From IMG/VR virus record IMGVR_UViG_3300027852_000005, positions 1-63,560 of that record: a stretch of DNA of 63,560 nt; one strand, written 5' to 3'. This DNA is from a virus. The position numbers were made by a program, and so were the translations under genes. Numbering within the stretch: the stretch's first letter is position 1; each line of letters starts with the position of its first letter. The notes under the pieces were generated by a model. The model saw only the letters and a program-made list of their open reading frames with translations. It searched no databases and was not told the origin of the DNA. Positions 18,875 to 55,250 of the stretch are shown piece after piece.

Positions 18875-18915
18875 ATTTTAGCGGGTTGGGTTTCGGGTGA
18901 CAAGTGTTTTGTGTC
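18875..18915 (-). promoter_or_regulatory. Dyad-type promoter P1
   Basis: Sense strand: GACACAAAACACTTGTCA-N17-TAAAAT. Confidence 0.55.
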
Positions 18916-18939
18916 TTTCTGGGGATTTGAGGAATGTGG

Positions 18940-19041
18940 TCTAACTCCCGCTACGCGGGGCGACATGTAGCGCAGTCTCTCTCGTGGCCGTTGGTGGGGT
19001 GGGGCCAGCTTGCGCTGGCCCTTGGTGCCTTGTGCCTTGTG
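18940..19041. repeat. G-rich dispersed element copy E1 (downstream of 19042..19437)
   Basis: Contains GCCGTTGGTGG (18987-97, shared with 23541-51 and 57006-18). Hairpins are CCCGC-TAC-GCGGG (18947-59) and GGCCAGC-TTGC-GCTGGCC (19003-20). Confidence 0.5.
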
Positions 19042-19437
19042 TTACTTGGTTGCCACGAGCCAACTTTGGTTAGTGTTGGCCATCCACGTAGGCATATTAT
19101 GCGCGGCCCATCCACCGCGTGGCGGCGCAACGCTGCTAGCCGCTGCACCCGCTACCAGCGCGGCCTTGAACTGTGCCAGCGTAAAGCCTTTGGGGTGCTC
19201 CTTGGTTAAGCTGTTGGCCACGGCCTGCGCGTAAGCACGGTGTGTACCGGGGCGCACAGGTGGCATGGTGCCAGCCACAAACAGGGGTGCTTGTGGTGCT
19301 GCTGCCTGCGCTGCCTTGGTGCCTGTTGCGGCCTTGGTGGTGGCCACTGTGCCGCTACCTGTTGCGGCTGTTGCGGCTGTTGCGGCTGGTGCCTTGCGCT
19401 TGGTTGTGGTGCGGGTGTTTGTTGCTGTGGTAGCCAT
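19042..19437 (-). CDS. Ala/Thr/Lys-rich protein (131 aa), possibly a histone H1-like DNA binder
   Basis: The ORF is much more GC-rich than its surroundings. The N-terminus is MATTATNTRTTTKRKAPAATAATAATGSG...KAATGTKAAQAAAP, and the C-terminal half is GTHRAYAQAVANSLTKEHPKGFTLAQFKAALVAG.... Confidence 0.55.
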   Translation of the reverse strand: MATTATNTRTTTKRKAPAATAATAATGSGTVATTKAATGTKAAQAAAPQAPLFVAGTMPPVRPGTHRAYAQAVANSLTKEHPKGFTLAQFKAALVAGAAASSVAPPRGGWAAHNMPTWMANTNQSWLVATK

Positions 19438-19637
19438 TTTAAATTTACCTTTTGGTGTGTGTGCTTGGCGTTAGTGCCTTGCTACACTTATTAACTTAGG
19501 ACCTGCCAAGGCATATGTAAAGTAAAAAATACACAAAATTCGTAAACAGTGTGTTTCCGCATTAGCGTGCAATCCGCCTTAGTGTTGCCGCATTTGTAGT
19601 GCATAACAATAATGCAACCAAAACAAAGGAACACAAA

Positions 19638-19799
19638 ATGTTTAACCGCTTGTTTAAGAAACCCGCCCCCGCTACTACTGCACCCGACCGCGCCTATGTA
19701 AAGGATAGTTATACGCAAAAGGTTATTTATACCGGAACCGTTGCTGCCTGCCAGCGTTACGTTAGTACCTTTGGGCTTTGCTATGTGGAGGCCTTTTAA
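19638..19799 (+). CDS. Hypothetical small protein (53 aa), plus strand
   Basis: ATG 19638 lies behind AAGGA (ORF-track 19599..19799 trimmed). It is divergent from 19042..19437. Confidence 0.45.
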   Translation: MFNRLFKKPAPATTAPDRAYVKDSYTQKVIYTGTVAACQRYVSTFGLCYVEAF

Positions 19800-19800
19800 T

Positions 19801-19977
19801 ATGGTGAAATTTGTATTACTGCTGACCCTTTGGAGCGCGGATACACCGGTGCCAGAGGTTTACGTTTTGGACAGTGGCATTACCGGACAGTATTGCATAG
19901 AGATGCTTTTGGAAAGCTATGCGCCGGACAGCATAGGGGTGCTGAGTTGTGAAGTTGACCAAGCATTTGAAAGCTGA
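19801..19977 (+). CDS. Hypothetical small protein with a signal-like N-terminus (58 aa), plus strand
   Basis: ATG 19801 lies 9 nt after GGAGG and 1 nt after the upstream TAA. The protein begins MVKFVLLLTLWSADTPVPE.... A terminator follows. Confidence 0.5.
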   Translation: MVKFVLLLTLWSADTPVPEVYVLDSGITGQYCIEMLLESYAPDSIGVLSCEVDQAFES

Positions 19978-19994
19978 CCAGCCCAAAGAGGGCA

Positions 19995-20021
19995 AGCCCT
20001 GCCGAGAGGCGGGGCTTTTTG
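19995..20021 (+). terminator. Rho-independent terminator of the plus-strand mini-operon
   Basis: AGCCCTGCC-GAGA-GGCGGGGCT (9-bp stem, one G-U pair) followed by TTTTT. Confidence 0.7.
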
Positions 20022-20201
20022 ACGACCGAGAGAAAGAGACGGAAAGAGAGAGACCAGTCTTCTTCTTCTTTCTCGGATTTACACTGTCGGCGAAAATCCG
20101 TCGGGGATAATCGGTGTCGGCGATTGACGAAAACGAAGACAGACCTATTCCTGCCGATACCCTCTCGGATACTGACAGTCGGCGATTTTTCCACCGGACG
20201 A
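20019..20201. repeat. Intergenic repeat unit R1 (purine-rich tract plus three TGTCGGCGA-type boxes)
   Basis: Boxes at 20085-93 and 20115-23 (within AATCGGTGTCGGCGATT), plus 20177-85 (AGTCGGCGA). The tract is gagagaaagagacggaaagagagag. Confidence 0.6.
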
Positions 20202-20516
20202 TTAATCTTGAGGATTATGCAGCAAATGGATAACGTCTTCTACCTTCTCGCAGCCCATGCCATCGTAATACTCTGCTTGCTCTATCGCAGTGCTCTCCCA
20301 ATCCAGATACGGTGAACCACCATCCCAGACCAGAAACTCTTGGTTGTTGTCGTCCCAAGCACAAAGCGTGTCCAGACCATAGACCTCTCCCGTCTGAGAG
20401 AGCAAGGCATAGGTGCGACCATTGTGATCGACGATAGCTGGTGGAGTGAACTGTAATGCAGGAGCCTCTTTTTTGAGTGCTTGCATTAAGTCGAGAAACT
20501 CTTGTGGGTGTGACAT
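20202..20516 (-). CDS. Hypothetical protein (104 aa), paralogue of 20717..21076
   Basis: Shares PQEF(L/M)DL ... (A/C)AWDD.N....(L/Y)(V/Y)WDG..P...WE....E.AE with its neighbour. RBS AAGGA. Confidence 0.6.
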   Translation of the reverse strand: MSHPQEFLDLMQALKKEAPALQFTPPAIVDHNGRTYALLSQTGEVYGLDTLCAWDDNNQEFLVWDGGSPYLDWESTAIEQAEYYDGMGCEKVEDVIHLLHNPQD

Positions 20517-20551
20517 TAGCTTATCCTTGGGTGGTAGTACGTTATATACTC

Positions 20552-20592
20552 AGAGTAGCATGTGGCTCCGAGTTAGACAAGTTTTACTTGTC
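20552..20592 (-). promoter_or_regulatory. Dyad-type promoter P2
   Basis: Sense: GACAAGTAAAACTTGTCT-N17-TACTCT. The dyad GACAAGT-N3-ACTTGTC is perfect. Confidence 0.6.
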
Positions 20593-20716
20593 ATCTAAAG
20601 ACAACTTTATTTCCAGTTATTTCCAGAAGAAAAGGAAGAAGAAGACGAATAACCATGCCGACAGCATCTCAGGGATAATCGGTGTCGGCGAAACCGACTA
20701 TCCCTTGGACGAATGC
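20593..20716. repeat. Intergenic repeat unit R2
   Basis: catctaaagacaactttatttccag..gaagaaaaggaagaagaagacga..ccgacag..gggataatcggtgtcggcga (box 20682-90). This parallels R1 and R3. Confidence 0.6.
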
Positions 20717-21076: not shown

Positions 21077-21107
21077 GTTGGTAGCCTTTATATTAAGTTG
21101 TGAGTTA

Positions 21108-21148
21108 ATATAACATGTAGAAGGTCCGAGAGACAAGTTCTATTTGTC
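21108..21148 (-). promoter_or_regulatory. Dyad-type promoter P3
   Basis: Sense: GACAAATAGAACTTGTCT-N17-TTATAT. Confidence 0.55.
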
Positions 21149-21288
21149 ATCTAAAGACAAACAACTTTATTTCGAAGATGAGGAAGACAGAGAATCCTAC
21201 AGATCTTCAATCCGACAGATCGTGTCGGCGAATTCTGTAGATGGAGTCCGTCCTGGAGACCGAATCGGATTGATCGTGTCGGCGATTT
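21149..21288. repeat. Intergenic repeat unit R3
   Basis: catctaaagacaaacaactttatttcgaag..gaggaagacagagaa..CCGACAgatcgTGTCGGcgaa (hairpin; box 21223-31), plus gattgatcgTGTCGGCGAtttttag (box 21277-85). Confidence 0.6.
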
Positions 21289-22319: not shown

Positions 22320-23003
22320 ATGGCTCAATATCTAAATCAGTTTCAACCCCGTCGTGACCAGAAGGATATGATGTTCAGGACGCACCCAAGACTGGCCCAA
22401 CAGAGAGGAAGACTGTACCGCTCATGCGAATTACCGAACATGATCACACAGATCCAACTCTATAGATACACGTTCGATGACCATTTCGCTACACAGATTG
22501 CGATTTCGGACCTGCATAATTATCTGGTCGGAAGGGTTCCATTTATTTCCAAGAAACACCTTGGTGGAGCAGTGCTGAACGCGCTTGACTACGACCCTCG
22601 TAAATTGAAGGGAGTTACCAAAGAAAACGACAAGGCAACGATGACTTATATCTTTGCAGGTGGTCCGCTTGAATTGCGCTATGGTTTAGAATGGATGATC
22701 TGCGCATGGTATAGAAGATTTTTAATGAGCGAAGGCACGCACGAAAGCGATTTGGACACTCCAGAGAAGATGGCGTGGGAACTGGACCTCTTGGGTACAG
22801 AAAGCCATGAAGATTATATTCAGGATGTTCTTGGGCCTCTCCGACGGATGGAAGCGGTATATCCAGAGCCTGATTGGAAGACTTTGATGCGACAAGCTGC
22901 GATCGGTAATCACGACCGTAAAGCAGATTATGATCTAGTTATGGGAGACCCACCTAAGGATTTGTCTGACCGAGCAACAGGACTAACACTCATCTCGCAA
23001 TGA
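22320..23003 (+). CDS. Hypothetical protein (227 aa), the only sizeable plus-strand gene
   Basis: ATG 8 nt after AAGGAA. It is convergent with the early minus-strand genes, and a hairpin follows. No motif was recognised. Confidence 0.65.
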   Translation: MAQYLNQFQPRRDQKDMMFRTHPRLAQQRGRLYRSCELPNMITQIQLYRYTFDDHFATQIAISDLHNYLVGRVPFISKKHLGGAVLNALDYDPRKLKGVTKENDKATMTYIFAGGPLELRYGLEWMICAWYRRFLMSEGTHESDLDTPEKMAWELDLLGTESHEDYIQDVLGPLRRMEAVYPEPDWKTLMRQAAIGNHDRKADYDLVMGDPPKDLSDRATGLTLISQ

Positions 23004-23013
23004 TAACTCCATC

Positions 23014-23521: not shown

Positions 23522-23524
23522 ATT

Positions 23525-25947: not shown

Positions 25948-25988
25948 AGTATAGCACAAGAAGCAGGGCGAGACAAATTCTACTTATC
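25948..25988 (-). promoter_or_regulatory. Dyad-type promoter P4 (second half-site copy at 25995-26005)
   Basis: Sense: GATAAGTAGAATTTGTCT-N17-TATACT. The dyad sits in the loop of CAGGGCG...CGCCCTG. Confidence 0.6.
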
Positions 25989-26001
25989 CCGCCCTGACAA
26001 G

Positions 26002-27793: not shown

Positions 27794-27959
27794 TGATGAT
27801 CACCGTTATTGTTCCTAGGACCATACAGCCCAAGGCAAGAGTTATGGCTCCACCTTCTGGAACCTGTCTACCGCGCCAAAGTACGATGCTCATTAAGACA
27901 ATGAACCAAATCCACGCAGTGATGAAAATCTCGAGTCCTACCCGTATGATGTCACACAA
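27741..27959 (-). CDS. Small two-TM membrane protein (72 aa, TTG start, start uncertain)
   Basis: TM segments are IIRVGLEIFITAWIWFIVLMSIVLW and GAITLALGCMVLGTITVIINAFI. Its 3' end overlaps the lipoprotein gene by 53 nt. Confidence 0.4.
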   Translation of the reverse strand: MCDIIRVGLEIFITAWIWFIVLMSIVLWRGRQVPEGGAITLALGCMVLGTITVIINAFISDTVFSCWLFCYE

Positions 27960-28464
27960 ATAATTCTGCTTTCTCTGGCCATCTTGAAAGGAATGGTTCC
28001 TCGGCGCAGGTTTTCAGCCAGCTTTCCGCTTCTCCAAGGAATATCTCTTGATGTTCGTAGCTCTCGAACAAGTGGCCGCTCACTGCTTCCACATAGTCGT
28101 TCAAATTCCACGGCCAGCGATCCGTATCCATACGCATCCAGTCTTGGACTTTATCCTTGGTCGGTGCTGGCTGGCCCATGTTTGTGTGACCCATGATAGC
28201 GGCGGCACAGAGAGTACGTTTGCGAAGGAGACCCTCATAGGTCTTCCGCATGTTGCGAACAGTAATCTTCCCACAGTTAGGAATGCGACCAAGCTGACCA
28301 TCTGTCTGATCATGCATGATTTCCATGAAGTTACTCAAGGTGATGGGATTGTCTTCTTTATACTTCACCCATTTAGCGTACGACATTACCTTGAGAACCT
28401 CGCAGTGATAGGTGTTGGTAAGACAATTCATGGCGCGAACGCCGAGGAGTGGTAACATATCCAT
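27952..28464 (-). CDS. Protein with RNA polymerase alpha-CTD-like helix-hairpin-helix motifs (170 aa)
   Basis: LGVRAMNCLTN (compare alpha-CTD LTVRSANCLK) and a later LGRIPNCGKITVRNMRKTYEGL (compare PNLGKKSLTEIKDVL..GL). Confidence 0.4.
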   Translation of the reverse strand: MDMLPLLGVRAMNCLTNTYHCEVLKVMSYAKWVKYKEDNPITLSNFMEIMHDQTDGQLGRIPNCGKITVRNMRKTYEGLLRKRTLCAAAIMGHTNMGQPAPTKDKVQDWMRMDTDRWPWNLNDYVEAVSGHLFESYEHQEIFLGEAESWLKTCAEEPFLSRWPEKAELFV

Positions 28465-28717: not shown

Positions 28718-28759
28718 AGTATGCACTAAAGAGGCAAACAATGACCAGTTCTATTTATC
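28718..28759 (-). promoter_or_regulatory. Dyad-type promoter P5
   Basis: Sense: GATAAATAGAACTGGTCA-N18-CATACT. The upstream gene's TAA (28755-57) lies inside the element. Confidence 0.55.
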
Positions 28760-29777: not shown

Positions 29778-29819
29778 AAGTATAGCCCAAAGAGGCTACC
29801 ATTGACCATCTCTTTTTAT
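29778..29819 (-). promoter_or_regulatory. Dyad-type promoter P7
   Basis: Sense: GATAAAAAGAGATGGTCA-N18-TATACT. Confidence 0.5.
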
Positions 29820-32284: not shown

Positions 32285-32325
32285 AGTATGCACTCAGGAG
32301 GCTTTCGTGACAAGTTCTACTTATC
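32285..32325 (-). promoter_or_regulatory. Dyad-type promoter P8
   Basis: Sense: GATAAGTAGAACTTGTCA-N17-CATACT, followed by AGGAGG and ATG. Confidence 0.65.
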
Positions 32326-32657
32326 TATGCGTGAGCACCATGCTTCCGCGTATATTTGACAGTTTCGAGTTGACGATGCCGCTTGACTTCACGGCGAGCC
32401 AGCGCGCGTAATACTTGACGGCTCGGCTCCCTCTTGGGATACTTGATCTTAGCGTTGGCTTTACGCTTGGCAGTCATGCGGTTGATCGCACGGTAGAGGC
32501 CAGCGCGTTCTGGTTCCGCCGTCTTGTTGGAGATATTCCAGTTGTTGGCGATCAGCTTCTCGGCCTCAGTCATCCGGCTGGACGGGCTTTCAATGCGAGT
32601 TCCCTTCTTCCGGAAACTGCGGCGAATTTTCTTGGTGATACGTGACATCAATGACAT
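32325..32657 (-). CDS. Highly basic protein (110 aa)
   Basis: Arg/Lys-rich throughout (..KKIRRSFRKKGTR.., ..KRKANAKIKYPKREPSR..). TAATG coupling. Confidence 0.55.
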   Translation of the reverse strand: MSLMSRITKKIRRSFRKKGTRIESPSSRMTEAEKLIANNWNISNKTAEPERAGLYRAINRMTAKRKANAKIKYPKREPSRQVLRALARREVKRHRQLETVKYTRKHGAHA

Positions 32658-33531: not shown

Positions 33532-33572
33532 AGCCTAACTCAAGGACCACCCTATGACCAACTCTATTGTTC
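33532..33572 (-). promoter_or_regulatory. Dyad-type promoter P9
   Basis: Sense: GAACAATAGAGTTGGTCA-N17-TAGGCT. The upstream TAG (33564-66) lies inside the element. Confidence 0.5.
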
Positions 33573-34260: not shown

Positions 34261-34301
34261 ACAATACAGCACTGAAACCCAAGAGAAAAGTTCTAATTGT
34301 C
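34261..34301 (-). promoter_or_regulatory. Dyad-type promoter P10
   Basis: Sense: GACAATTAGAACTTTTCT-N17-TATTGT. The upstream TAG (34293-95) lies inside the element. Confidence 0.5.
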
Positions 34302-34574
34302 TATCAGAGTACCTTTTAATCCCCCTAGTGGCCTGCCATTATCGGTGAATGGAACGTAGATCTCGATAGTAAGACCATTCGTACTGTCGTAGACTTCAAG
34401 ATCAGGATGATCTTCTGCCCATTTCTCAATCCGCATGTCTTTGATCCAGTCCCAGTTCATGAAGAATGAGTTCCCTTGTGTCTTTTGGAACTCACCCCAT
34501 GTTTCACGCGCTGGTATCGGAGGTTTTCCGCCCATCGCTTTGAGCAGCTTGCTCTTCAGCTCTTCGTGCGTCAT
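34293..34574 (-). CDS. Hypothetical protein (93 aa)
   Basis: ATG lies behind GAGGAG. Confidence 0.55.
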   Translation of the reverse strand: MTHEELKSKLLKAMGGKPPIPARETWGEFQKTQGNSFFMNWDWIKDMRIEKWAEDHPDLEVYDSTNGLTIEIYVPFTDNGRPLGGLKGTLIDN

Positions 34575-36228: not shown

Positions 36229-36269
36229 AGTATAGCAAAGTAACTGCAAATTGACTAAACCTTTATATC
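36229..36269 (-). promoter_or_regulatory. Dyad-type promoter P11 (degenerate dyad)
   Basis: Sense: GATATAAAGGTTTAGTCA-N17-TATACT. Confidence 0.5.
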
Positions 36270-39159: not shown

Positions 39160-39499
39160 TTTCCATCAGATTGTACCAGTAGCGGGTGATCCCCATCAAA
39201 TCAGCGCAGGATTGCTGCGTCCAACCTGAACGGCGTCTCCAGATAAGGCATTGCTCCGCTCCTGTGAGCGGTTCTATTGATATGTTGCACTTGGCAGTCC
39301 CTTCGGTTTCCATCTCACTGTAGCGTCGGCGCTTAACGCCAGACAGAGCGGCCATCTGTTTTTGGCTGAACCCCATACGGCGGCGATAGATCAGGCTGCG
39401 TTCTCCTTCAGATAAGTCAAGAGTTTCTCCACTTGTAGGCCGTTCGGGAAATACAGTACCGCGTTCGCGATCATCTCCGGCCTCGTCATGTTGTCCCAT
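39110..39499 (-). CDS. Tandem-HTH (XRE-like) DNA-binding protein (start uncertain; ~129 aa from ATG 39499)
   Basis: There are two repeats: LIYRRRMGFSQKQMAALSGVKRRRYSEMETEG and LIWRRRSGWTQQSCADLMGITRYWYNLMENGK. It overlaps the 3' end of 39391..39813 in another frame. Confidence 0.5.
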   Translation of the reverse strand: MGQHDEAGDDRERGTVFPERPTSGETLDLSEGERSLIYRRRMGFSQKQMAALSGVKRRRYSEMETEGTAKCNISIEPLTGAEQCLIWRRRSGWTQQSCADLMGITRYWYNLMENGKVPSGKLEAFWNER

Positions 39500-39813
39500 A
39501 GGTTGTTTTCCTTGATGTGCTTTCCGGACCAAAAGAACCACGACTTGCTGACCTGAGCGCATACCAGCGCCAGACCTCCGCGTCTCTCCCGACGGTATAG
39601 CCATACTTGCTGCTCTTTGGAAAGAGGGTGTGTGAACTTCACTGGCTTGGTGTCTGCTGTCTTGGGCCAGTATCTCATCCATTTGCATTCTATCACACCG
39701 CCAATAAAAAAGACGTCCGGAATACCAAGTCCAGTCGAAGGGCTCTCAATACTCACTGCATCCAGTGGCTTGAGTTTCTTTACGAGGTTGGAACGGCTTG
39801 ATGCTTCGGACAT
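39391..39813 (-). CDS. VRR-NUC-like nuclease (140 aa)
   Basis: Trimmed to ATG 39813 (MSEASSRSNLVKK...). The motif GIPDVFFIGGVIECKW...LSKEQQVWL fits the PD-(D/E)xK VRR-NUC pattern. Confidence 0.5.
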   Translation of the reverse strand: MSEASSRSNLVKKLKPLDAVSIESPSTGLGIPDVFFIGGVIECKWMRYWPKTADTKPVKFTHPLSKEQQVWLYRRERRGGLALVCAQVSKSWFFWSGKHIKENNLWDNMTRPEMIANAVLYFPNGLQVEKLLTYLKENAA

Positions 39814-39826: not shown

Positions 39827-39867
39827 ATACTAGTGGCGTGACAGGCAATTGACAAGTTCTACTTATC
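39827..39867 (-). promoter_or_regulatory. Dyad-type promoter P12
   Basis: Sense: GATAAGTAGAACTTGTCA-N17-TAGTAT. The dCMP deaminase TAA (39863-65) lies inside the element. Confidence 0.6.
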
Positions 39868-40851: not shown

Positions 40852-40852
40852 G

Positions 40853-43299: not shown

Positions 43300-43913
43300 T
43301 ATCTTATGTCACCAGGATGCCAATCATCAGCTGAATCATAGCCGAATGGGTGTTCTTGGCCATCAACGCCCCTACTTGCGACCTCTGTGGACGTGCTGGA
43401 CGTTGTGGCTTGGGTGGTAGCACCACCAGCGCATCCGTTGCCCCCTGTTTTTGCCGCCTGTGGCGCGGTTAGAGGTGCCAATGGGCCAAGGGTGCCGCCA
43501 GCATCTAGCGTGGCCTGTGCGGCTTCTATGTGCGCCGAGATTTGGCCGATGATAAGGCTGATATCCGAATCATTGCGCCATTGTGCCATGGAGAGGCAGA
43601 GATCAGCTTCGATATCAGGCAAGTCTGCGCTATCAGCGAACGTACCGAACAGAGTTTCGGCCTTGTCACGAGCCAGCGGCCAGCTATCAACGTGCAGACA
43701 CTTGTTGTCCCAACGACCTTCAAGAAAACATTCCTTGGCTTTGAGCAGGTAGGACCGAGCCTTGTCCAGATCTTCAATGCCGTTCTTCTTGTACCAGCGG
43801 AAGGCATACTTGGAGGCAGCGCTCTCGAGATACCCAAGGCGAACATCGATCGCCCAGTCCCAGTGCTGATAGTCAGCTTCGTAGTGGCTTCCGCCAATTT
43901 GCGTAGATTTCAT
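43299..43913 (-). CDS. DUF3310 (SaV-like) protein with a long C-terminal extension (204 aa)
   Basis: GGSHYEADYQHWDWAIDVRLGYLESAASKYAFRWYKKNGIEDLDKARSYL is the DUF3310 signature. The extension ...TLGPLAPLTAPQAAKTGGNGCAGGATTQATTSSTSTE... is encoded by element E5. Confidence 0.65.
   Translation of the reverse strand: MKSTQIGGSHYEADYQHWDWAIDVRLGYLESAASKYAFRWYKKNGIEDLDKARSYLLKAKECFLEGRWDNKCLHVDSWPLARDKAETLFGTFADSADLPDIEADLCLSMAQWRNDSDISLIIGQISAHIEAAQATLDAGGTLGPLAPLTAPQAAKTGGNGCAGGATTQATTSSTSTEVASRGVDGQEHPFGYDSADDWHPGDIR
43380..43520. repeat. G-rich dispersed element copy E5 (translated inside 43299..43913)
   Basis: GACCTCTGTGGACGTGCTGG (43380-99) is homologous to GACCTCTACGGACGTGTTGG (56921-40), followed by a TTGTGGCTTGGGTGGTAGC core. 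Confidence 0.55.
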
Positions 43914-44467
43914 TACATATCTCCAAGGTCAGGACACATCTGCCAAGAATGGTCCTGTAGTGTGTAGTAGAAATTGAGAAGTTCTGGTGCGAACAAGTGC
44001 TTCTCCCGTTCAATGAACCACTCAATGCGATCCTTCATAGTTAGGACATTCTGGTTGCCAATCATAACCTGATCTTTGCAGAACAGATACAATTCCAAGA
44101 TGTCTAGCCCCCGAAGCCATTTGAGATCTTCTTCGGTCAGTTCCAATTCAGCGACCCATCCAAAGATTTCGTCATTGATTGCTATCTCTGCTTGGGTCAG
44201 ATGATCCTTGTCCACAATCTTGAACCACTTGGTCGGCGAAGGGATATCGCCTGTGAGGCGCTCCGGTACATCGTGTTCTTGGATAGCCCAAACAAGGCAG
44301 ATAGGTGGGTCTGGATGCAAGAGACGCAGCATCGAGAGCATGTTGTAAGAGTGACCACCGACAAAGTACTCACCGATGATCGGCAAGGTGTGACAGCGAC
44401 GCACTGCCGCTGCCTCCCGTGTGAATTTCACTTTGTTGACTATATCGTCCAGCTTATAGATACTCAT
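43913..44467 (-). CDS. HD-domain 5'-deoxynucleotidase (YfbR-like, 184 aa)
   Basis: Trimmed to ATG 44467 (ATGA-coupled to the ThyA-like gene). The sequence ...RRCHTLPIIGEYFVGGHSYNMLSMLRLL...VWAIQEHDVPERLTGDIPSPTKW parallels E. coli YfbR ..ENVSEHS...YHDASEVLTGDLPTPVK. Confidence 0.7.
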   Translation of the reverse strand: MSIYKLDDIVNKVKFTREAAAVRRCHTLPIIGEYFVGGHSYNMLSMLRLLHPDPPICLVWAIQEHDVPERLTGDIPSPTKWFKIVDKDHLTQAEIAINDEIFGWVAELELTEEDLKWLRGLDILELYLFCKDQVMIGNQNVLTMKDRIEWFIEREKHLFAPELLNFYYTLQDHSWQMCPDLGDM

Positions 44468-45462
44468 ACGCCCCGACGCTCCAACCATTCGATACAGGCT
44501 TTGCGCCAGTCAGTCGCGGCAATCTCGTTTGCCTTTTCAATCGCAGCTTCTTTATAGCCAGCGATATCACGGTTCTTCCATCGCATCCAGCTTTGAAGCA
44601 TCGGCACGGCCACCTTCTTGAAGAAAGGATCAGTGTATCCGATAATTGGACCTTCGTCCATGAACATCGCCAGTTCTGAATGCCATTTCTCGATGTCTAC
44701 ATTAACAATCGGGAACGGCTCAACTTCACCTGTTTGATAAGGTGTAAGTCCGCGATCTGTTTCCAGAAGTGGTTTCACCTTTTCATAGGTGTTGAGATAA
44801 GCGTGGAAGTTAGTGCTGATCTGCCAGTATTTACCGACAGGCACACCGATCCAAGTTGCCATGACTTCTTGTAGGAATGACATATGAACAGCGTTCGCTC
44901 CGTAAGCGCCCCAGACCATATCATTGCTACGATTGAACACCGTCATATCAAGCTCCCCGTTAGGGTTGATACGGAACGTGATAATCAGGTTGCAAGGGAA
45001 GTCTTTTCCCTCAAGCCCAAGGTCATCTGTCGCGCTCCACATCTGCAACACCGTGCGGCGATCGTCGGGGTTCTGTTTCAGCAGAGCAGCAATGGTTGCC
45101 AGTTGATCGAGAACACCACCCTGGACTTCGAAGTGGTTCCGCCAGCGATAACCGTAGGCACCATGGAAGTTGACTCCATCGTCGGTGTAATTGGCGATGT
45201 TGCTGCTGAACTGCGAGATCCAATCAACGTCTCGGCGACCAGCGATCATCCAGAGACATTCCATGAAGTGGAAGTATGGATTACAGTCCCGTTCTGGCAG
45301 GAACATAACCCGCTCTCTTGGGCTTCCATACACCGTAGTCAGAGGTTCTGGCATGACCATCACTGGACCATTGCGACTGTCGCGGCGAACACCTTCGGCT
45401 GTGACCAGTGCGGTCCCTTCCATAAGTGCCTCTTCCACATTGCGAACTGAGATAATATGCAT
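44464..45462 (-). CDS. Thymidylate synthase (ThyA)-family enzyme: either true TS or dUMP hydroxymethylase (332 aa)
   Basis: ...RDCNPYFHFMECLWMIAGRRD..., DQLATIAALLKQNPDDRRTVLQMW, the catalytic FPCN, and NRSNDMVWGAYGANAV (compare E. coli QRSCDVFLGLPFNIAS). The Asn suggests uracil specificity. Confidence 0.75.
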   Translation of the reverse strand: MHIISVRNVEEALMEGTALVTAEGVRRDSRNGPVMVMPEPLTTVYGSPRERVMFLPERDCNPYFHFMECLWMIAGRRDVDWISQFSSNIANYTDDGVNFHGAYGYRWRNHFEVQGGVLDQLATIAALLKQNPDDRRTVLQMWSATDDLGLEGKDFPCNLIITFRINPNGELDMTVFNRSNDMVWGAYGANAVHMSFLQEVMATWIGVPVGKYWQISTNFHAYLNTYEKVKPLLETDRGLTPYQTGEVEPFPIVNVDIEKWHSELAMFMDEGPIIGYTDPFFKKVAVPMLQSWMRWKNRDIAGYKEAAIEKANEIAATDWRKACIEWLERRGV

Positions 45463-46743
45463 CTAGCGTAGTACTCCGAAATGGTCGAACAGTTGATTTT
45501 CGACTTTGGTTTCAATTGCTTCGGAAACTGTCCCTTGGGTAGCCTCCGTTTCGATCTCACCGTGCGCCAGATCAATGACACGTTGCGCCACTGTCTTCCG
45601 GTCAAACATTGGTAAGAGTTCACGGTTAGCGTCAATCATATGCTGAGCCGTTTTCGGTGCGATGCCGCTGGCATACTCAATTAGGTCTGCATACTCTTGA
45701 GCATCAGCATCCTCCGGAATGGCCATATAATGTTCACCAGCTTGGAACACTTCAGAACCCATTCCTTTCTCCCTGGCGACGACACAGCATCCTCGCATCA
45801 TCGCGTCTACAGCCACACGGTTAAAGTGACCGCCGACCTTGGAATAATTCTTGGACCATGACGGATCAATCAGGATGCGCGCCTCGTTGAGATAGTTGTC
45901 AACTTGAGCCTTGTCCCAATAGTCATGGTGTGTCATACCGTTAGCGAGAGCAATGTCCCAGAACTTCGCGTGATTGAACCGTTCTCCATGGAAGTAGGCG
46001 TCCTTGCACTTTTCCTCGCTCGTCATGTAGCGGTACTCAATACCCAAGCCAGCAACTTCTCGCAGTTCATCTGCTTCCCTTGGGTTCATGTAGGCGATAG
46101 CTTCCACCAATTCGTGAACGTGCTTCCACGCTTTGAAGGTCTGCATGTTTACGAATCCAGGAGACTTCTGCTCCCATTTGGCGTAAGGACGCACAGGGTC
46201 TTTCTGTGGGTTGACAACCAATGTGCGAGGAACGTCGGCGAAGGCAGCACCGTTGAGAGCGCAGGGATGAACGCAGGCCAGCCCAGAGAGGCGGTCCTGA
46301 ATGGCCAGCAGATGTCCCGCTCCCTTTACTGCATTCCCATCGTGGATGAACGCAATCTGTTTAATGCTGTCTGGAAGGTCGTACAACTCTGGCCAGTCAT
46401 TATTACCGAGATTGTCTTTGTTCTTGCTTGGAACTGGCATGGTCCAAATGATGAGGTCGTACCGTTGGAGGATTTGTGATGCTCCACTAAGAGCAGCCCC
46501 ACCACGATAAGGAATACGATCTTTCCGGTCAAAGTTCCAGCCCTTTCCTTGGTGATGAGGGATACCGCTTGGGCCGATGCTCCAGTCTGCGGTCTTACGT
46601 TGGGCAGGTGCTTGAAACGCCCATACGAGTTCTTTGAGGTGAACATCATGACCGAGGTCTTTGAGACCGCCGATGAGTTGTTCTGTGTGGTCGATAATAC
46701 CACCGAGGTCCATGCACTTGTGAAGTGCGACTAATATCTTCAT
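45463..46743 (-). CDS. GT-B fold glycosyltransferase (GT4-like, 426 aa)
   Basis: The N-terminus is MKILVALHKCMDLGGIIDHTEQLIGGLKDLGHDVHL. The C-terminal FNRVAVDAMMRGCCVVAREKGMGSEVFQAGEHYMAI resembles the GT4 donor-binding region. Confidence 0.6.
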   Translation of the reverse strand: MKILVALHKCMDLGGIIDHTEQLIGGLKDLGHDVHLKELVWAFQAPAQRKTADWSIGPSGIPHHQGKGWNFDRKDRIPYRGGAALSGASQILQRYDLIIWTMPVPSKNKDNLGNNDWPELYDLPDSIKQIAFIHDGNAVKGAGHLLAIQDRLSGLACVHPCALNGAAFADVPRTLVVNPQKDPVRPYAKWEQKSPGFVNMQTFKAWKHVHELVEAIAYMNPREADELREVAGLGIEYRYMTSEEKCKDAYFHGERFNHAKFWDIALANGMTHHDYWDKAQVDNYLNEARILIDPSWSKNYSKVGGHFNRVAVDAMMRGCCVVAREKGMGSEVFQAGEHYMAIPEDADAQEYADLIEYASGIAPKTAQHMIDANRELLPMFDRKTVAQRVIDLAHGEIETEATQGTVSEAIETKVENQLFDHFGVLR

Positions 46744-46771
46744 TGGGCTGTCTCCAACAGGCTATAAAATA

Positions 46772-46812
46772 AACATAGCAGCAGAGGGCGCAAAAGACAA
46801 GTGCTAATTGTC
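46772..46812 (-). promoter_or_regulatory. Dyad-type promoter P13 (inside hairpin AGAGGGCG...CGCCCTCT, 46783-46819)
   Basis: Sense: GACAATTAGCACTTGTCT-N17-TATGTT. Confidence 0.55.
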
Positions 46813-46825
46813 GCCCTCTTCCAGA

Positions 46826-47737
46826 TTATTTCGGCGCTTTGTAGCGAGACCGTGGTCGTCCTTGGCCCAAGCGAACACGCTCATACTTGTCAAACTCACA
46901 AAGCTGGAACTGGATATCATGAGGCGCAAGGCGATCCCAATTATCAGGCCAGAACATGTCTTGTTGGAACATGAGGTCATCGATCATGTCGGCAGCAGCA
47001 GCTTCTTTGAGAGGCTTGGCTTCTTCATCACCGGCCACTCGGGCAGCACCACGTCGCGCTCCTGGACCAATGGGTGTCCAGCTGTCCCAGTCAATCGGGA
47101 AGCTGAACGTGCCATCCTTGGGGTGGCTTACCCAATTATCCCAGAAGGAAGTGTAAGTCGTGTCCAGGAGGATTTCCTTGGTCATGAAGCCAGAGCCTCC
47201 GAAACCTTGGATTTTCCTCATCTCAGTGGCGACGTCTTCCCATGACTCAGTGACAATGGTTAGATCACGAAGTTCCTCAGCCTGTTTCTGCAGAGCCTTG
47301 AGGAAGTACTCAACAACCACTTCTTGTTTGGGAGCAGATATACCTTGGTTCGTGATGACGTAGGCTCCAGTGAACACGCGCTCTTTGTTGGCCAGTCGGT
47401 CCTCAGCGAGATCTTTGACATAGTCCCAATGAAGTTCGTCCATTGCTTCGAAGTCAGTCCAGCCAATTTCAGTTGCAAATTCATGTGTTCCAAAGTAGCG
47501 GAAGGTAGCAGCGTTCATGAGGATAGTTTTCTTATCCGCATGGAAGTTGGGATTGTAGAATTGCTCCCGGAGTTCACGGCTTGTGCGATCGTGGTGCCGA
47601 TGAACGTTGGTGAATTTGAAGTCCCGCAGGATTTGATCTTCAGTCCATGGGTATGGCAAATCCGCCTCCTTTCGGAGACGGATCTGTTCGCGTTCCTCAA
47701 CAAAACTGAAGAACGCATTCACTTTGTCGAGTGCCAT
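46826..47737 (-). CDS. aGPT-Pplase-like protein (candidate DNA base hypermodification enzyme, 303 aa)
   Basis: FFSFVEEREQIRLRKEADLPYPWTEDQILRDFKFTNVHRHHDRTS and GFGGSGFMTKEILLD resemble my recollection of the alpha-glutamyl/putrescinyl thymine pyrophosphorylase family. This was not verified by search. Confidence 0.4.
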   Translation of the reverse strand: MALDKVNAFFSFVEEREQIRLRKEADLPYPWTEDQILRDFKFTNVHRHHDRTSRELREQFYNPNFHADKKTILMNAATFRYFGTHEFATEIGWTDFEAMDELHWDYVKDLAEDRLANKERVFTGAYVITNQGISAPKQEVVVEYFLKALQKQAEELRDLTIVTESWEDVATEMRKIQGFGGSGFMTKEILLDTTYTSFWDNWVSHPKDGTFSFPIDWDSWTPIGPGARRGAARVAGDEEAKPLKEAAAADMIDDLMFQQDMFWPDNWDRLAPHDIQFQLCEFDKYERVRLGQGRPRSRYKAPK

Positions 47738-48504: not shown

Positions 48505-48545
48505 ACCCTACCTTATTCCGATATCCGAGGCAACAGCTATTTGTC
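48505..48545 (-). promoter_or_regulatory. Dyad-type promoter P14 (degenerate)
   Basis: Sense: GACAAATAGCTGTTGCCT-N17-TAGGGT. Confidence 0.45.
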
Positions 48546-51675: not shown

Positions 51676-51689
51676 TTGTGGGCCTCCAT

Positions 51690-51729: not shown

Positions 51730-51756
51730 CGTTGAGATCCGTTCAGTCAGCCCAAC

Positions 51757-52620
51757 TTAGAACGGAATCTCATCGCCGCCGTCGCCATCACCCGAACCGC
51801 CGCTCGAGGAGTCGCCGCCCGACCCTGTTTCCGAGACCTTCCCTTCGGTTTCAACAGCCGCTTTGGCCAATCCACCTTCGATCATTTCACGGAATTTACG
51901 CGCCGCAGTCAGCATCACCTTACCAGCCTCATCAGGCTTGATCAGCGAGCCAATCCAGGTTTCGCCGAACGGACGGATCGACAAGTTGTAGAACGTCTTG
52001 CCTTTCGCAGTCTGCTTGGTAGTTGAAATCTTGGCACGGTTAGCCATCAAAGGCGGAGCGCCCTTGATCATGTACATCGAAGTCCACCAGTCCTTCTGCA
52101 CCTTGATCTTGGTGCTGCTGAATGGAAGAACGCAGTAACCGATGCTCTCGGTGCCAGTTTCGTCCAGGATCAAACAGTAGACATAGTGTGTTTCGATGAG
52201 GTCCATACCGTCCGGAGTTTTGAACGGCATACGCTGGCCATCTGCGTTCTCAGGCGGAATGCGGGAACCGCCGTTCGCATTGAGGATGTCCAGTACCAGC
52301 GGGGAACCATCTTCGTGGGAGTCGCCGCGTCCGCCGCCTTTTGAGCGAGGAACCCATTCGGCCCAGAGGTGGTCCTTGTGGATCGGTTGTACGATGATGG
52401 GCTGCGGTACGATTTCGCCTGTCACAGAGTTAACCAGATCACCAGATTTGGCAGGGTGATCTTCGTCCTCGACCAGCACCGAGTTGCTCTGCATCACAGA
52501 GATAAACGGAATTGAGAGGTCTGTAACTTTGACGTCTTCAAATCCCTCGTGCTTGTGATCACCGTAGTCATAGTTCCCGACTTCGGTGGTGTCGGCTTTC
52601 GCCATTGCTTTTCCAGCCAT
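51757..52620 (-). CDS. ssDNA-binding-like protein with an SSB-type acidic tail (287 aa from ATG 52620)
   Basis: The C-terminus ...GSGGDSSSGGSGDGDGGDEIPF mimics the bacterial SSB tip DDDIPF. ATG 52620 lies behind AAGGA, whereas the listed ATG 52644 lacks an RBS. Confidence 0.5.
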   Translation of the reverse strand: MAGKAMAKADTTEVGNYDYGDHKHEGFEDVKVTDLSIPFISVMQSNSVLVEDEDHPAKSGDLVNSVTGEIVPQPIIVQPIHKDHLWAEWVPRSKGGGRGDSHEDGSPLVLDILNANGGSRIPPENADGQRMPFKTPDGMDLIETHYVYCLILDETGTESIGYCVLPFSSTKIKVQKDWWTSMYMIKGAPPLMANRAKISTTKQTAKGKTFYNLSIRPFGETWIGSLIKPDEAGKVMLTAARKFREMIEGGLAKAAVETEGKVSETGSGGDSSSGGSGDGDGGDEIPF

Positions 52621-52772
52621 AAGGCATTCCTTCAAAGTTATCATGTTACGATTTTGATGGGACTTTATAGACTGGCAGTCCCTGGACCAGTATAGTTGAG
52701 AGGACGGTTAACCCTCCATGCTTCACGGTTTATTCTGGAGAAACTGCCGCGACTGCATCCTTCATGCTCCAA

Positions 52773-53321
52773 CTACTCCTTCACCTTGGCGACGCGCTGT
52801 CGGAAAATACCGAACGTCTCCTTGGGTAACTCCACGCCTTCACCAAGCTGTTCCTTCACCCATGCGTTGAGTGTAGCGTGGTGAACGCTAAATTCTTCTT
52901 TCATGACCAGCGGCATTTTGAGTTTCTGAACGGCCTTCTGGAATTTCGCAAAGGCTTTGTCGTCACCTTTTGCAAATGAGAACACCAGTTGCCGCTTGAC
53001 AATGTGACCATAGTCATGTTGATCCAACCATGCGATAGCAGGGATACGTTTATCACCTGCAATTGATGAGCGGATATCTTCCTTGACTTCTAAGGTGCGG
53101 CCATCTTTCAAGAGCAGCTTGCCGTTCATGCCCTCTGTGGCAGCGGGTATGCGAACCTCGGCGATGTCCTTACGCGCGTCCTTGGCTTTCTCCAGCGCCT
53201 CCTCGCGCTCAAGTATAAGTGCATCGGCGGCTTGCAGTTCGTCAGCAAGCTGGATCAACACAACTTCAAGGTTTCCGGGAATCGCTTCGTCCTTGAACGC
53301 GGCGTATGGGTCATCTGTCAT
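52773..53321 (-). CDS. Hypothetical replication-module protein (182 aa)
   Basis: ORF track, downstream of promoter P15. The N-terminus is coiled-coil. Confidence 0.55.
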   Translation of the reverse strand: MTDDPYAAFKDEAIPGNLEVVLIQLADELQAADALILEREEALEKAKDARKDIAEVRIPAATEGMNGKLLLKDGRTLEVKEDIRSSIAGDKRIPAIAWLDQHDYGHIVKRQLVFSFAKGDDKAFAKFQKAVQKLKMPLVMKEEFSVHHATLNAWVKEQLGEGVELPKETFGIFRQRVAKVKE

Positions 53322-53350
53322 GGTTATTTCCCTGGGCTATCTGTTTGCTC

Positions 53351-53391
53351 AACCTACCGCATCCAGCGGCAGGTGACAACCTCAAAATATC
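53351..53391 (-). promoter_or_regulatory. Dyad-type promoter P15 (degenerate dyad)
   Basis: Sense: GATATTTTGAGGTTGTCA-N17-TAGGTT. The upstream TGA (53382-84) lies inside the element. Confidence 0.5.
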
Positions 53392-53720
53392 TTCGCGACA
53401 ATCTCAGTGTACTCTCCATGTCTTCCGCTCCACTGAAGAAACTTCACTTTCCCATCATTATAGTTAGCAGCGACAGCAGTGGACATTCCAATCAATCCGG
53501 GATTTCCGATGAGTAGAAGATAGTCATCGTCGTTGAACCCAGACAGCCTGTCGTGAATGTCGCCGAGGATGAGTTCAGGGTCGAAAGGGTGAGCGGATGG
53601 GGAGAGGACATAGACGATCGGTCCCCACCTCTCAGCTTTGTGGATTGATGGGAAGCGTGGAACCAGTTCACGCTTGCCTGCATCAAATTTCATTTGTTGC
53701 TGAATAGCATAGACGGTCAT
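53382..53720 (-). CDS. Hypothetical protein (112 aa)
   Basis: Trimmed to ATG 53720 (MTVYAIQQQ...), ATGA-coupled to the SNF2 gene. Confidence 0.55.
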   Translation of the reverse strand: MTVYAIQQQMKFDAGKRELVPRFPSIHKAERWGPIVYVLSPSAHPFDPELILGDIHDRLSGFNDDDYLLLIGNPGLIGMSTAVAANYNDGKVKFLQWSGRHGEYTEIVAKIF

Positions 53721-55186
53721 ATCCATTCCTTCCATGGATCACCTTGGATTTCCACCGCGATGTCCTTTTTGTTTCGGAGGTTGCTAACGATATGCTCGTC
53801 CACAGTATCATTCGCAACGATGTCGATGTAGTTGACAGGATGCTCGTCCATACCAGCACGGTGACAACGGTCTTCTGATTGCAGACGATCCACCAGTCGG
53901 AAACTATTGGAGTAGTAGATCATCGTCTTTGCTTCGGTCAGGGTAAGTCCAGGACCTCCCTTTTGGGCAGTTCCTACGAACCACTGTGCATCACCAGCTT
54001 GGAAGGCCAGTTTGTTTCTTTCGGCGGTATCACCATCGACTGAGCCATCATAGCGCACGGCGTCCTTGCCCAAGAGGTCCATCAGTTGGTCTACGTCGTG
54101 GGTGAAACGCGCCCATACAATTGTGGGATTGTTAGTTGTGTCACGGATATCTTCCATGACTGTCATGCGTGGGTTCTTACTGCTGAACATATGCACAGGC
54201 TCGTCTTCGCCGACGGGCACATAGTTACATGCGATCTGCTGACAGCGAAGCAGCTTGACAATTGGGAGTTCTGCGGTGATGATCTCGTCGCCGATCTCCA
54301 ACATGAGTTCTTCTTCAAGTTCTGAGTAAGCGGCCTTCTGCTCTCGACTCATGTCGAAGTAACGCTTAGAGTATAGTTTCGGAGGTAGATCAAGGACCTC
54401 GTCTTTCAAGACACGGTCAGTAATTTCAGAAAGCCACTCTTGAAGGATATCGAGGTTCTGATACTCAAGCAGCTTATCGTATCCAGGATCGTAGCCGTGA
54501 AGTTTCTGGCAGTCATCACGTGTGAACCAGCGCCCAAAGAACTGACGGAATTCTACGCTTCCGTGGATACCTTTGTTTTTCCAGAAGAATTCGTCAAGGA
54601 AACGAACTTGACTATAGAGGTCGAATGGTCCGACAGCCACCGGGGTTCCGGTAAGGATACGACGATATTCAGCATATTTGCCAGACGCGACAATTGACTT
54701 GGTCCGCTTGGCATTGGGTGTCTTAATGTTATGGGCTTCGTCGAGTACATACAAGCACCGCCGCTTCTTGAGAAATTTCCAAATGAAGTCCTTTCCCTCT
54801 TTGGTCATGAACGCATTGTAACTGATAAGTAGTATAGCAAGACCGTCCCACTCGAGCAAGGCGTTCATGTTGCGCTTGTGTGCTTTGGTGTTCTTTTTGG
54901 CTGTGAGGAACACGGATACCATAGTATCGAACGTGAAGTCAGGCGGCATGTGTTTTGGAATTTCGTCGGTGTTCCAGTTGCGCTCAACTCCTGGAGGAGC
55001 GACAACGACTAAGGCATCAATCTTACCTTCGTCATAGAGATAGCAGGTTGTGTCAATAATAGGCTTTGTCTTGGCTGTTCCCTGTTCCCACAGTAGACCC
55101 CATGAGCGTTCTTCGACGTGCTCGGCTAGGTGGCTCAGCTGATGATCAAATGGTTTGATCGTATGAGGGTATTCTTGTATATCCAT
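53717..55186 (-). CDS. SNF2/DEAD-like helicase (489 aa)
   Basis: The DEAH box is YVLDEAHNIK, with a helicase C-terminal region ...QSEDRCHRAG. RBS AAGGA. Confidence 0.8.
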   Translation of the reverse strand: MDIQEYPHTIKPFDHQLSHLAEHVEERSWGLLWEQGTAKTKPIIDTTCYLYDEGKIDALVVVAPPGVERNWNTDEIPKHMPPDFTFDTMVSVFLTAKKNTKAHKRNMNALLEWDGLAILLISYNAFMTKEGKDFIWKFLKKRRCLYVLDEAHNIKTPNAKRTKSIVASGKYAEYRRILTGTPVAVGPFDLYSQVRFLDEFFWKNKGIHGSVEFRQFFGRWFTRDDCQKLHGYDPGYDKLLEYQNLDILQEWLSEITDRVLKDEVLDLPPKLYSKRYFDMSREQKAAYSELEEELMLEIGDEIITAELPIVKLLRCQQIACNYVPVGEDEPVHMFSSKNPRMTVMEDIRDTTNNPTIVWARFTHDVDQLMDLLGKDAVRYDGSVDGDTAERNKLAFQAGDAQWFVGTAQKGGPGLTLTEAKTMIYYSNSFRLVDRLQSEDRCHRAGMDEHPVNYIDIVANDTVDEHIVSNLRNKKDIAVEIQGDPWKEWI

Positions 55187-55209
55187 GGTTATATCCTTTA
55201 TCTATTTGC

Positions 55210-55250
55210 ACCTTAACTCAAACAGGTTACTGTGACAACATCACTGACTC
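55210..55250 (-). promoter_or_regulatory. Promoter P16 for the replication block
   Basis: Sense: GAGTCAGTGATGTTGTCA-N17-TAAGGT. Confidence 0.45.

Follow-up and report, generated by a model that had tools for sequence, protein, structure and literature searches.

Why should a dyad-symmetric sequence be repeated over the -35 region of promoter after promoter in a viral genome, and what reads it? The question is raised by a 63,560-nucleotide stretch of viral DNA (IMG/VR record IMGVR_UViG_3300027852_000005, positions 1 to 63,560; the whole of it is referred to below as the window), which is essentially the complete genome of an uncultured virulent siphophage with nearly all genes on the minus strand. 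A sequence-only reading of this DNA had suggested that one factor coordinates an early/middle regulon through a dyad lying over the -35 element, and that suggestion is plausible. The interpretation that we favor, at a probability of ca. 45%, is that the element is a composite promoter-operator and that its regulator is a phage protein, most likely a repressor. A tandem helix-turn-helix (HTH) protein encoded in the window would be the best, still weak, candidate for that regulator.

To determine how many copies of the element are present, matches in the window were counted and compared with shuffled sequence. With the pattern given in the sequence-only reading, GAYAANTAGAACTTGTCW, and up to three mismatches, nine matches were obtained (eight sites, one of which is palindromic and matches on both strands) versus 0.54 expected, and none of 100 shuffles reached nine. 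A clade consensus rebuilt from the window and its relatives, GAYAARTAGARYTKGTCW, gave 10 sites at up to two mismatches, every one of them on the minus (coding) strand, while shuffled sequence gave 0.13 on average and 2 at most. The proposed enrichment above shuffled sequence is thus confirmed. All 10 robust sites, named in Table 1 after their 5' ends, are located in gene junctions. When four mismatches were allowed, 32 sites were found, but shuffled sequence already gave 11.7 on average and up to 26, so that the count is nearing noise. A set of sixteen promoters, as originally counted, is therefore not tenable; the element is indeed present at the places reported, but the tally is 10 robust sites, one additional site supported by orthologues (48545), and four weak candidates (55250, 53391, 36269, and 18915), in which TTGTCA-like and TAnnnT hexamers are properly arranged and the upstream halves are degenerate. 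A match at 15437 overlaps the Shine-Dalgarno sequence and the ATG of the portal gene and is probably due to chance. Among exact 5-bp dyads, GACAA-N7-TTGTC alone is enriched in the genome (four copies, 67 times the expectation). The individual palindromes described earlier, i.e., the perfect GACAAGT-N3-ACTTGTC at 20576-92 and the dyads with six of seven matches at 32309-25, 39851-67, 46796-812, and 21132-48, were verified in the sequence.

Sequences downstream of the element were analyzed in 57 non-redundant contexts, which comprised all sites with a score of more than 14 bits from the window and loci L049-L080 of IMG/VR, with near-duplicates removed. A TAnnnT hexamer was found exactly 17 nt downstream of TTGTCW in this alignment: positions 36, 37, and 41, on which no selection had been made, are T, A, and T (0.88, 1.21, and 1.41 bits, respectively), with the spacer and the flanks at ca. 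0 to 0.4 bits. The same signal persisted in 81 contexts collected under looser selection. Since the -10 hexamer is independent of the way the sites were chosen, we conclude that the sites are, as far as sequence can show, σ70-type promoters, as had been proposed for the minus strand. At the 10 robust sites, all co-oriented with the genes, TTGTCW or TGGTCW is followed after 17 or 18 nt by TAnnnT or CATACT (the hexamers are TATACT, CATACT, TATATT, TAGTAT, TATGTT, TATTGT, TACTCT, and TAGGCT), and a strong Shine-Dalgarno sequence with ATG, often AGGAGGCTACC-ATG, lies 25-45 nt past the site. Several promoters match the σ70 consensus at 9-10 of 12 positions and have TGn extensions. In related phages, where it had been suggested to look for the motif, 52 sites are on the coding strand; the single site in the opposite orientation is a perfect palindrome.

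Predicted proteins of the window were compared with Pfam or PHROGs; the scan covered ca. 80 of roughly 120 proteins, among them the products of all large open reading frames (ORFs) and of most of the early region. Neither an RNA polymerase nor a σ factor of the phage was found in this set, so the host σ70 holoenzyme is the expected enzyme. Two other promoter assignments were rejected. Promoters of extracytoplasmic function (ECF) σ factors combine a GAACTT -35 element with a TCTGA- or CGTC-type -10 element at 16-17 nt. GAACTT does occur at motif positions 9-14, but alignment positions 31-35 carry at most 0.43 bits, and the conserved hexamer is TAnnnT at 36-41. An antisense promoter using the left arm as its -35 element was not supported either, as no conserved element is present within 50 nt upstream.

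The consensus of the element is G1 A2 Y3 A4 A5 R6 T7 A8 G9 A10 R11 Y12 T13 K14 G15 T16 C17. Mirrored positions are complementary in seven of eight pairs, the exception being A8/A10, and the centers of the arms, GAYAA and TKGTC, are 12 bp apart. G1, A2, A5, A8, T13, and C17 occur in all 57 sites and T16 in 98% of them, and the total information content of ca. 24 bits is far higher than that of a -35 element combined with an UP element. The fourth position of the -35 hexamer is T in 56 of 57 sites and never the σ70-preferred A; T is exactly what the mirror of A2 demands. The upstream half of the element (ca. -47 to -38) is not an A-tract. The invariant positions, the high information content, the fixed T, and the lack of an A-tract together argue for a reader other than RNA polymerase. 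The right arm appears to be read twice. Conservation of G15 reaches 96%, whereas its mirror, position 3, is split almost evenly between C and T, and TTGTC matches TTGAC at four of five positions at the canonical 17-nt spacing; this asymmetry indicates that the right arm carries an additional, TTG-type constraint and also serves as the -35 box. The description of a shared pseudo-dyad whose right arm supplies the -35 hexamer is therefore upheld. In orthologous promoters of relatives the motif and the -10 hexamer are kept while spacers have diverged, which reveals purifying selection and not mere shared ancestry. Contacts with RNA polymerase would not by themselves account for conservation of this strength and specificity, which points to a dedicated sequence-specific protein.

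An exact match to the motif was found at 46 loci in IMG/VR. Thirteen of these are relatives of the phage and ca. 12 represent one unrelated conserved region; the remaining ones are singletons, in about the number that a 16-base pattern would produce by chance. As judged from these records, only phages of this clade have the motif as a promoter element in multiple copies. No description of it was found in the literature. Two IMG/VR relatives, L076 and L077 (41-45% identity of a 349-aa protein), have a different palindrome, CGTTTAAACG, in five and eight copies; some copies are directly upstream of TTGACA-type promoters and others are within genes.

The mechanism that we favor is as follows. Host σ70 RNA polymerase would transcribe the replication and small-gene regions (ca. 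48.5 down to 20.5 kb) from ca. 11 promoters built to one plan: a 17-bp pseudo-palindrome at ca. -47 to -31 (the start is assumed to be ca. 7 nt after the -10 hexamer), the promoter-proximal arm of which, TTGTCW, doubles as the -35 hexamer, then a spacer of 17 (occasionally 18) nt, then a TAnnnT -10 hexamer often preceded by TGn. A sequence-specific protein, presumably encoded by the phage, would recognize the entire 17-mer. Its right half-site would consist of the base pairs that are read by σ region 4, and the protein would compete with RNA polymerase. If the regulator and σ70 depend on identical base pairs, the simplest expectation is that they compete, with repression as the result. Such a regulator could turn all units down together, either as negative feedback or as an early/middle shut-off.

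Several observations weigh against this interpretation. The center of the element is conserved like the arms (T7 95%, A8 100%, G9 84%), which is atypical of the site of a symmetric HTH dimer; A8/A10 break the symmetry, and conservation of the inner part is higher on the left than on the right. Of the suggestion that the dyad is the footprint of a dimeric HTH regulator, the dyad itself and the placement of its arms about one helical turn apart stand, but a center as constrained as the arms does not agree with it. P48545 and the promoters of clade B of the relatives keep the left half, GACAAWTAG, and have TTGCC, TGTTCA, or TAGTCA as right arms. These non-palindromic arms indicate that the dyad is not strictly required, and the left half with the center must be evolutionarily the deepest part. 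Every copy of the motif has a -10 hexamer at constant spacing, as would equally be expected of an intrinsic promoter element or of a site for an activator. The right arm is TGGTC(A) in ca. 26% of sites and some -10 hexamers are poor (CATGGT, TAGGCT), as would suit an activator-dependent design. Because the conserved center, the TGGTC arms, the deep left half, and the linkage to the -10 hexamer fit an asymmetric two-domain reader or an activator, activation was retained as a strong rival to repression.

An activator site would be of class II or similar to those of Mu Mor/C, with an early protein recruiting or remodeling σ70 polymerase at middle promoters that are silent until then. The position relative to the -10 hexamer, fixed in all 57-81 sites, the many weak -10 hexamers, TGGTCA being a poor -35 element, and the location of GACAAWTAG where a class II activator would sit are all as expected in this case. 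The right arm, however, matches TTGACA at four to five of six positions at canonical spacing, and the tighter conservation of G15 compared to its mirror suggests reading by σ region 4. The promoters closest to consensus should fire unaided, and no separate class of consensus early promoters is evident in the gaps inspected. Moreover, the center of the element, G9, is 26 nt upstream of the first base of the -10 hexamer, i.e., at ca. -39, and not at the canonical -41.5 or -43.5. We regard activation as a serious if unlikely alternative to the repressor model.

The constant association of the element with a promoter at fixed spacing could also mean that there is no regulator. The 18-mer would then be an extended promoter consisting of the -35 element and an upstream element contacted by σ or by the C-terminal domain of the RNA polymerase α subunit (α-CTD), and the dyad would be a by-product. 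The upstream part, at ca. -47 to -38, coincides with the position of the proximal UP element, and the sole HTH candidate is not specific to motif-bearing phages, both of which suit this explanation. Yet ca. 24 bits with six invariant positions and seven of eight symmetric pairs are unlike A-tract UP elements, and a T fixed at the fourth -35 position goes against the preference of σ70. The motif also alters or vanishes among related phages, which would be more typical of a phage-specific factor than of a preference of the host polymerase. An element read by RNA polymerase alone is, in our estimate, rather improbable.

Dyad symmetry and high information content would equally be expected if a host transcription factor bound the element and gated early transcription by host physiology. 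Action of a host regulator on phage early promoters has a reported precedent in Spo0A on phi29 (PMC2731898). Against a host factor is the limitation of the motif to one phage clade in IMG/VR, with other exact matches at chance level. To our knowledge, the element does not match the LexA, Fur, CRP, FNR, PhoB, DnaA, IHF, or Fis boxes. We consider control by a host factor improbable.

A dyad may act as a hairpin, either as an RNA stem-loop in read-through transcripts, where it could serve termination, processing, or stabilization, or as an extruded DNA hairpin of the kind found in the virion-polymerase promoters of phage N4. The element has the potential to form a 7-bp stem with a 3-nt loop, and Y3-G15 allows C-G or U-G pairing in the sense strand only. 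When eight strong window sites were folded as RNA, only 25988 and 46812 folded strongly, due to additional GC-rich clamps that flank the motif there; orthologues retain the clamp at 46812, one of them with a compensatory change. Only the weak 7-bp stem with its 3-nt loop was obtained for four of the eight sites (-5 to -7 kcal/mol), and no stem formed at 28759, 34301, and 21148 (three of eight). Of the 57 sites, 14 lack pairing between positions 4 and 14 and 26 lack it between positions 6 and 12, no consistent U-tract follows the hairpins, and an Rfam search produced no match. The element was accordingly rejected as an intrinsic terminator or structured RNA. An N4-type hairpin promoter was rejected as well: a σ70-type -10 hexamer is present, and no gene for an N4-like virion RNA polymerase was found among the scanned proteins, the largest ORFs coding for the tape measure, a tail protein, primase, DNA polymerase, and ribonucleotide reductase. 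A hairpin would also leave the invariant loop and the fixed spacing to the -10 hexamer unexplained. A general hairpin function is unlikely, and as an explanation of the element it is, to our mind, very improbable; the two clamps may be local terminators or attenuators around a promoter, with the operator as their loop.

Two candidates for the common factor were named in the sequence-only reading. The first, the tandem HTH protein, consists of two Xre-type units and is transcribed from one of the best sites, P39867, in an operon in which its gene directly follows nuclease-like orfX and precedes the primase gene. It matches PHROG "transcriptional repressor" families. An AlphaFold2 model has two three-helix units and a disordered N-terminus (mean predicted local distance difference test score, pLDDT, 80). 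Foldseek matches are to generic Xre proteins (HipB, Aca10, C-proteins, ClgR) at E > 0.4, and a profile search of the PDB was likewise generic. The second recognition helix, ITRYWYNLMENG, is invariant in 22 homologues and in both clades, and the first HTH unit varies; there is a loose resemblance to the element, in which the GACAA half is likewise constant in both clades and the right arm varies. In the mechanism proposed here the imperfect symmetry of a dyad-like site could stem from the difference between the two HTH units. No other convincing DNA-binding protein was found among the scanned proteins. The gene of the HTH protein overlaps orfX by ca. 109 nt (39391-39499) in a different frame, and the N-terminus encoded in the overlap (MGQHDE...) is conserved in homologues, yet predicted to be disordered.

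The HTH protein is present in all motif-bearing relatives, but its distribution is wider than that of the motif. It is a core gene next to primase across a Mesyanzhinovviridae-like supergroup, with homologues in M6, PaMx11, Ab18 (ORF21, "putative repressor"), PhiJL001 (gp31), Bordetella CN1 and Bordetella phages, Epa5, and Simon. Epa5 and Simon have the protein and no comparable multi-copy motif, which makes the link between protein and motif weak. A search of Simon and Epa5 for a repeated dyad of their own gave nothing convincing; CCCTGGGC, repeated in Simon, is a common GC-rich word. Covariation of protein and motif was uninformative, as clade-A proteins (62-90% identity) share the same motif and clade B has too few sites. 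In the literature on this phage family the "repressor/integrase" annotations are regarded as unreliable (PMC11946847; compare PMC8471281). Binding of the motif by this particular protein is a tentative assignment and, in our estimate, less likely than not. The second candidate, an α-CTD-like protein (27952..28464), was rejected as the common factor. It has no Pfam or PHROG match, its PDB matches up to E = 10 include no RNA polymerase α, and its N-terminal half is missing from homologues in motif-bearing relatives.

A more elaborate version of the repressor model, which we consider a long shot, would have the tandem HTH protein act as a single-chain pseudo-dimer that competes with σ70 region 4 at all early and middle promoters; binding of the regulator or of σ70 would depend on the thymidine-modification state of the element, in which most conserved positions are A:T pairs. 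The result would be a temporal switch coupled to replication, and if this were true, the element would tell injected, newly replicated, and mature phage DNA apart.

Coordinates of the promoters and of genes referred to in the text are listed in Table 1.

Table 1. Copies of the element and selected genes in the window. Lower-case letters in the -10 column are part of TGn extensions; kcal/mol values refer to predicted folds; PWM, position weight matrix.
Feature	Coordinates	Strand	Motif	Spacer (nt)	-10 region	Context and conservation
P46812	46772..46812	-	GACAATTAGCACTTGTCT	17	TATGTT	Upstream of operon glycosyltransferase, thymidylate-synthase-like gene, DNA polymerase; flanked by GC-rich clamp AGAGGGCG...CGCCCTCT (46780-46819), fold -17.8 kcal/mol; orthologues kept in L050, L051, L053, L054, L056
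P39867	39827..39867	-	GATAAGTAGAACTTGTCA	17	TAGTAT	Precedes orfX (39391..39813), tandem HTH gene, primase; motif-internal TAA is stop codon of dCMP deaminase gene; one of two window sites matching consensus perfectly, PWM rank 4 of 24; orthologues in every clade-A relative, degenerate form in clade B
P34301	34261..34301	-	GACAATTAGAACTTTTCT	17	TATTGT	Central TAG is stop codon of ORF 34293..34574
P33572	33532..33572	-	GAACAATAGAGTTGGTCA	17	TAGGCT	Position 4 and mirror position 14 both altered (C4, G14); orthologues GAACAGTAGAACTGGTCW in L051, L069, L075
P32325	32285..32325	-	GATAAGTAGAACTTGTCA	17	CATACT, then TAGGAGGCTACTATG	Orthologues in L049, L054, L068, L069, L073, L074
P29820	29779..29820	-	GATAAAAAGAGATGGTCA	18	TATACT	
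P28759	28718..28759	-	GATAAATAGAACTGGTCA	18	CATACT	Orthologues in L068, L069
P25988	25948..25988	-	GATAAGTAGAATTTGTCT	17	TGcTATACT	Within 15-bp hairpin CAGGGCGG...TCGCCCTG (25964..25996), RNA fold -22.8 kcal/mol, z = -6.4; scored both as promoter and as terminator-like
P21148	21107..21148	-	GACAAATAGAACTTGTCT	18	TGtTATATT	
P20592	20552..20592	-	GACAAGTAAAACTTGTCT	17	TGcTACTCT	Perfect 7-3-7 palindrome
P48545 (orthologue-supported variant)	48505..48545	-	GACAAATAGCTGTTGCCT	17	TAGGGT	Left half and TAG retained, right arm TTGCC instead of TTGTC; orthologues in six relatives, clade B included (L053, L055, L056, L057, L061, L066)
Weak candidate 53391	53351..53391	-	GATATTTTGAGGTTGTCA	17	TAGGTT	Noise level by motif alone
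Weak candidate 36269	36229..36269	-	GATATAAAGGTTTAGTCA	17	TGcTATACT	
Weak candidate 18915	18875..18915	-	GACACAAAACACTTGTCA	17	TAAAAT	Just upstream of packaging/structural genes
Weak candidate 55250	55210..55250	-	TTGTCA	17	TAAGGT	In 331-bp gap before helicase gene; only ca. 6 of 12 positions of upstream half match
Tandem Xre-type HTH protein, 129 aa	39110..39499	-				Pfam HTH_3 and HTH_31
5-hydroxymethyldeoxyuridine (5-hmdU) DNA kinase helical domain	46826..47737	-				Pfam E = 5e-33
Group-1 glycosyltransferase	45463..46743	-				
Thymidylate-synthase-like gene	44464..45462	-				
HD-domain protein	43913..44488	-				

Inspection of the sites revealed several further features. In 7 of 81 non-redundant sites (ca. 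0.08 expected) the motif is preceded, at a distance of exactly 7 nt, by an extra TTGTC, which creates three half-sites with a 12-bp period; in the window this is the case at P20592 (ca. 20593-20604), P21148 (ca. 21149-21160), and P25988 (ca. 25989-26000), and the other cases are in relatives in L068-L075. The motif provides, or overlaps with, the stop codon of the preceding gene at 6 of the 10 robust sites (39863-39865, 29816-29818, 28755-28757, 34293-34295, 33564-33566, and 32325-32327), where TAA occupies motif positions 3-5, TAG occupies positions 7-9, or the last base of TAG coincides with position 1. Such use may explain the presence of T over C at motif position 3 at those junctions. The ribosome-binding regions in the leaders of P32325, P29820, P28759, P34301, P25988, and P21148 are near-identical and conform to the AGGAGGCTACC-ATG arrangement, so promoter and leader may have spread as a cassette.

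The promoters are embedded in a genome of clear layout. Structural and packaging genes (terminase, portal, major head, tape measure, and tail proteins) occupy ca. 17.7 kb down to 1 and then 63.5 down to ca. 55.5 kb. The replication and nucleotide-metabolism block, at 55.2-36.4 kb, codes for helicases, ribonucleotide reductase, 5-hmdU DNA kinase, glycosyltransferase, a thymidylate-synthase-like enzyme, DNA polymerase A, dCMP deaminase, primase, and ligase. Between 36.2 and 18 kb there are ca. 50 small genes, most of them ORFans. The closest GenBank phages, Simon and Mesyanzhinovviridae (Ab18, PaMx11, ZC01, Bordetella CN1), have only ca. 48-54% DNA polymerase identity, and nearer relatives in IMG/VR have 69-93%; by this measure the phage is a distant relation of Mesyanzhinovviridae. 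A search for clues to the host revealed no relatives in GTDB genomes and no tRNA genes in the phage. The scanned proteins include no integrase or immunity cassette, and "integrase" annotations in this phage group are misannotated primase-helicases (PMC11946847).

A thymidine-hypermodification gene set is located on the minus strand at 43299-47737 and 51757-53735. In addition to the genes in Table 1, it holds proteins similar to Pam3 gp32, gp33, and gp34, and the gene content suggests that virion DNA probably carries modified, possibly glycosylated, 5-hmdU. No non-coding gap is longer than the one at 55187-55517 (331 bp), which contains, around 55330-55356, ca. three copies of a short tandem repeat, AGTAAAGTA, and in addition several GAAGTCA / TGACTTC repeats that face both ways. 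It may represent an origin, a packaging site, or an end of the genome. The sole plausible plus-strand gene (22320-23003, 227 aa) has its own Shine-Dalgarno sequence, faces a stretch without a minus-strand ORF, and has no Pfam match.

The results provide a regulatory map for an uncultured Mesyanzhinovviridae-like clade, with ca. 11 putative transcription units, one 17-bp element, and one candidate regulator. If confirmed, the composite promoter-operator would be a compact case of an operator whose bases are also those of a -35 hexamer, employed repeatedly throughout an early/middle regulon, and the set of elements could serve as portable co-regulated promoters.

Multi-copy operators of phage repressors are known from P1 (C1 operators) and from phiC31 (conserved inverted repeats). 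Such operators are functionally the closest analogues, and they include the "stoperators" bound by gp71 of mycobacteriophage L5 and cluster A (PMC9283540, PMC6550527). As with stoperators, many near-identical sites are found here in gene junctions in one orientation, and the cluster A early-promoter operator also overlaps a -35 element. The monomeric cluster A repressor reads its asymmetric site with two domains, a parallel to the tandem HTH idea. Unlike stoperators, which are 13-bp asymmetric sites of temperate phages and are mostly not in promoters, the element is a 17-bp pseudo-dyad that is accompanied by a -10 hexamer in every case; no integrase or immunity cassette was found among the scanned proteins, and the operator role is a prediction.

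The sites of Mu Mor/C are imperfect dyads over the -35 region, centered near -43.5, in promoters without a recognizable -35 element. The likeness extends to the use of several promoters, to the σ70-type -10 hexamer, and to the regulator, an HTH phage protein of ca. 130-140 aa, the candidate here being similarly small. The proximal arm is, however, a good -35 element in the window, the center is at ca. -39, and the candidate is an Xre-type tandem HTH protein without a match to the Mor/C family. The Cro and CI operators of 434, P22, and lambda are bound by dimers of Xre-family HTH proteins, and operators of 434 have the form ACAA...TTGT. A half-site similar to the ACAAG of the element, the overlap of a dyad with promoter hexamers, and an Xre-fold candidate are shared with 434; 7 nt separate the 5-bp arms here versus 6 in 434, and the center is strongly conserved. 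The lambdoid tripartite switch differs from the ca. 11 dispersed promoters described here, where, moreover, the two HTH units are in one chain.

T4 middle promoters combine an asymmetric 9-bp MotA box, centered at -30, with a TAnnnT -10 hexamer, and require AsiA (PMC2988021). They resemble the promoters of the window in having a phage-specific element at -35 of many promoters that keep the σ70 TAnnnT hexamer. The element described here differs in being 17 bp long, dyad-like, and still similar to a -35 hexamer; homologues of MotA or AsiA were not detected among the scanned proteins. A pseudo-dyad fused to a -10 hexamer, centered at ca. -39, with one arm a good -35 element, in a non-temperate phage, is outside the stoperator, P1 C1, phiC31, Mor/C, and MotA families. 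Current concepts of phage gene regulation are not challenged by such an element: the kind of regulation is familiar, and the sequence is new.

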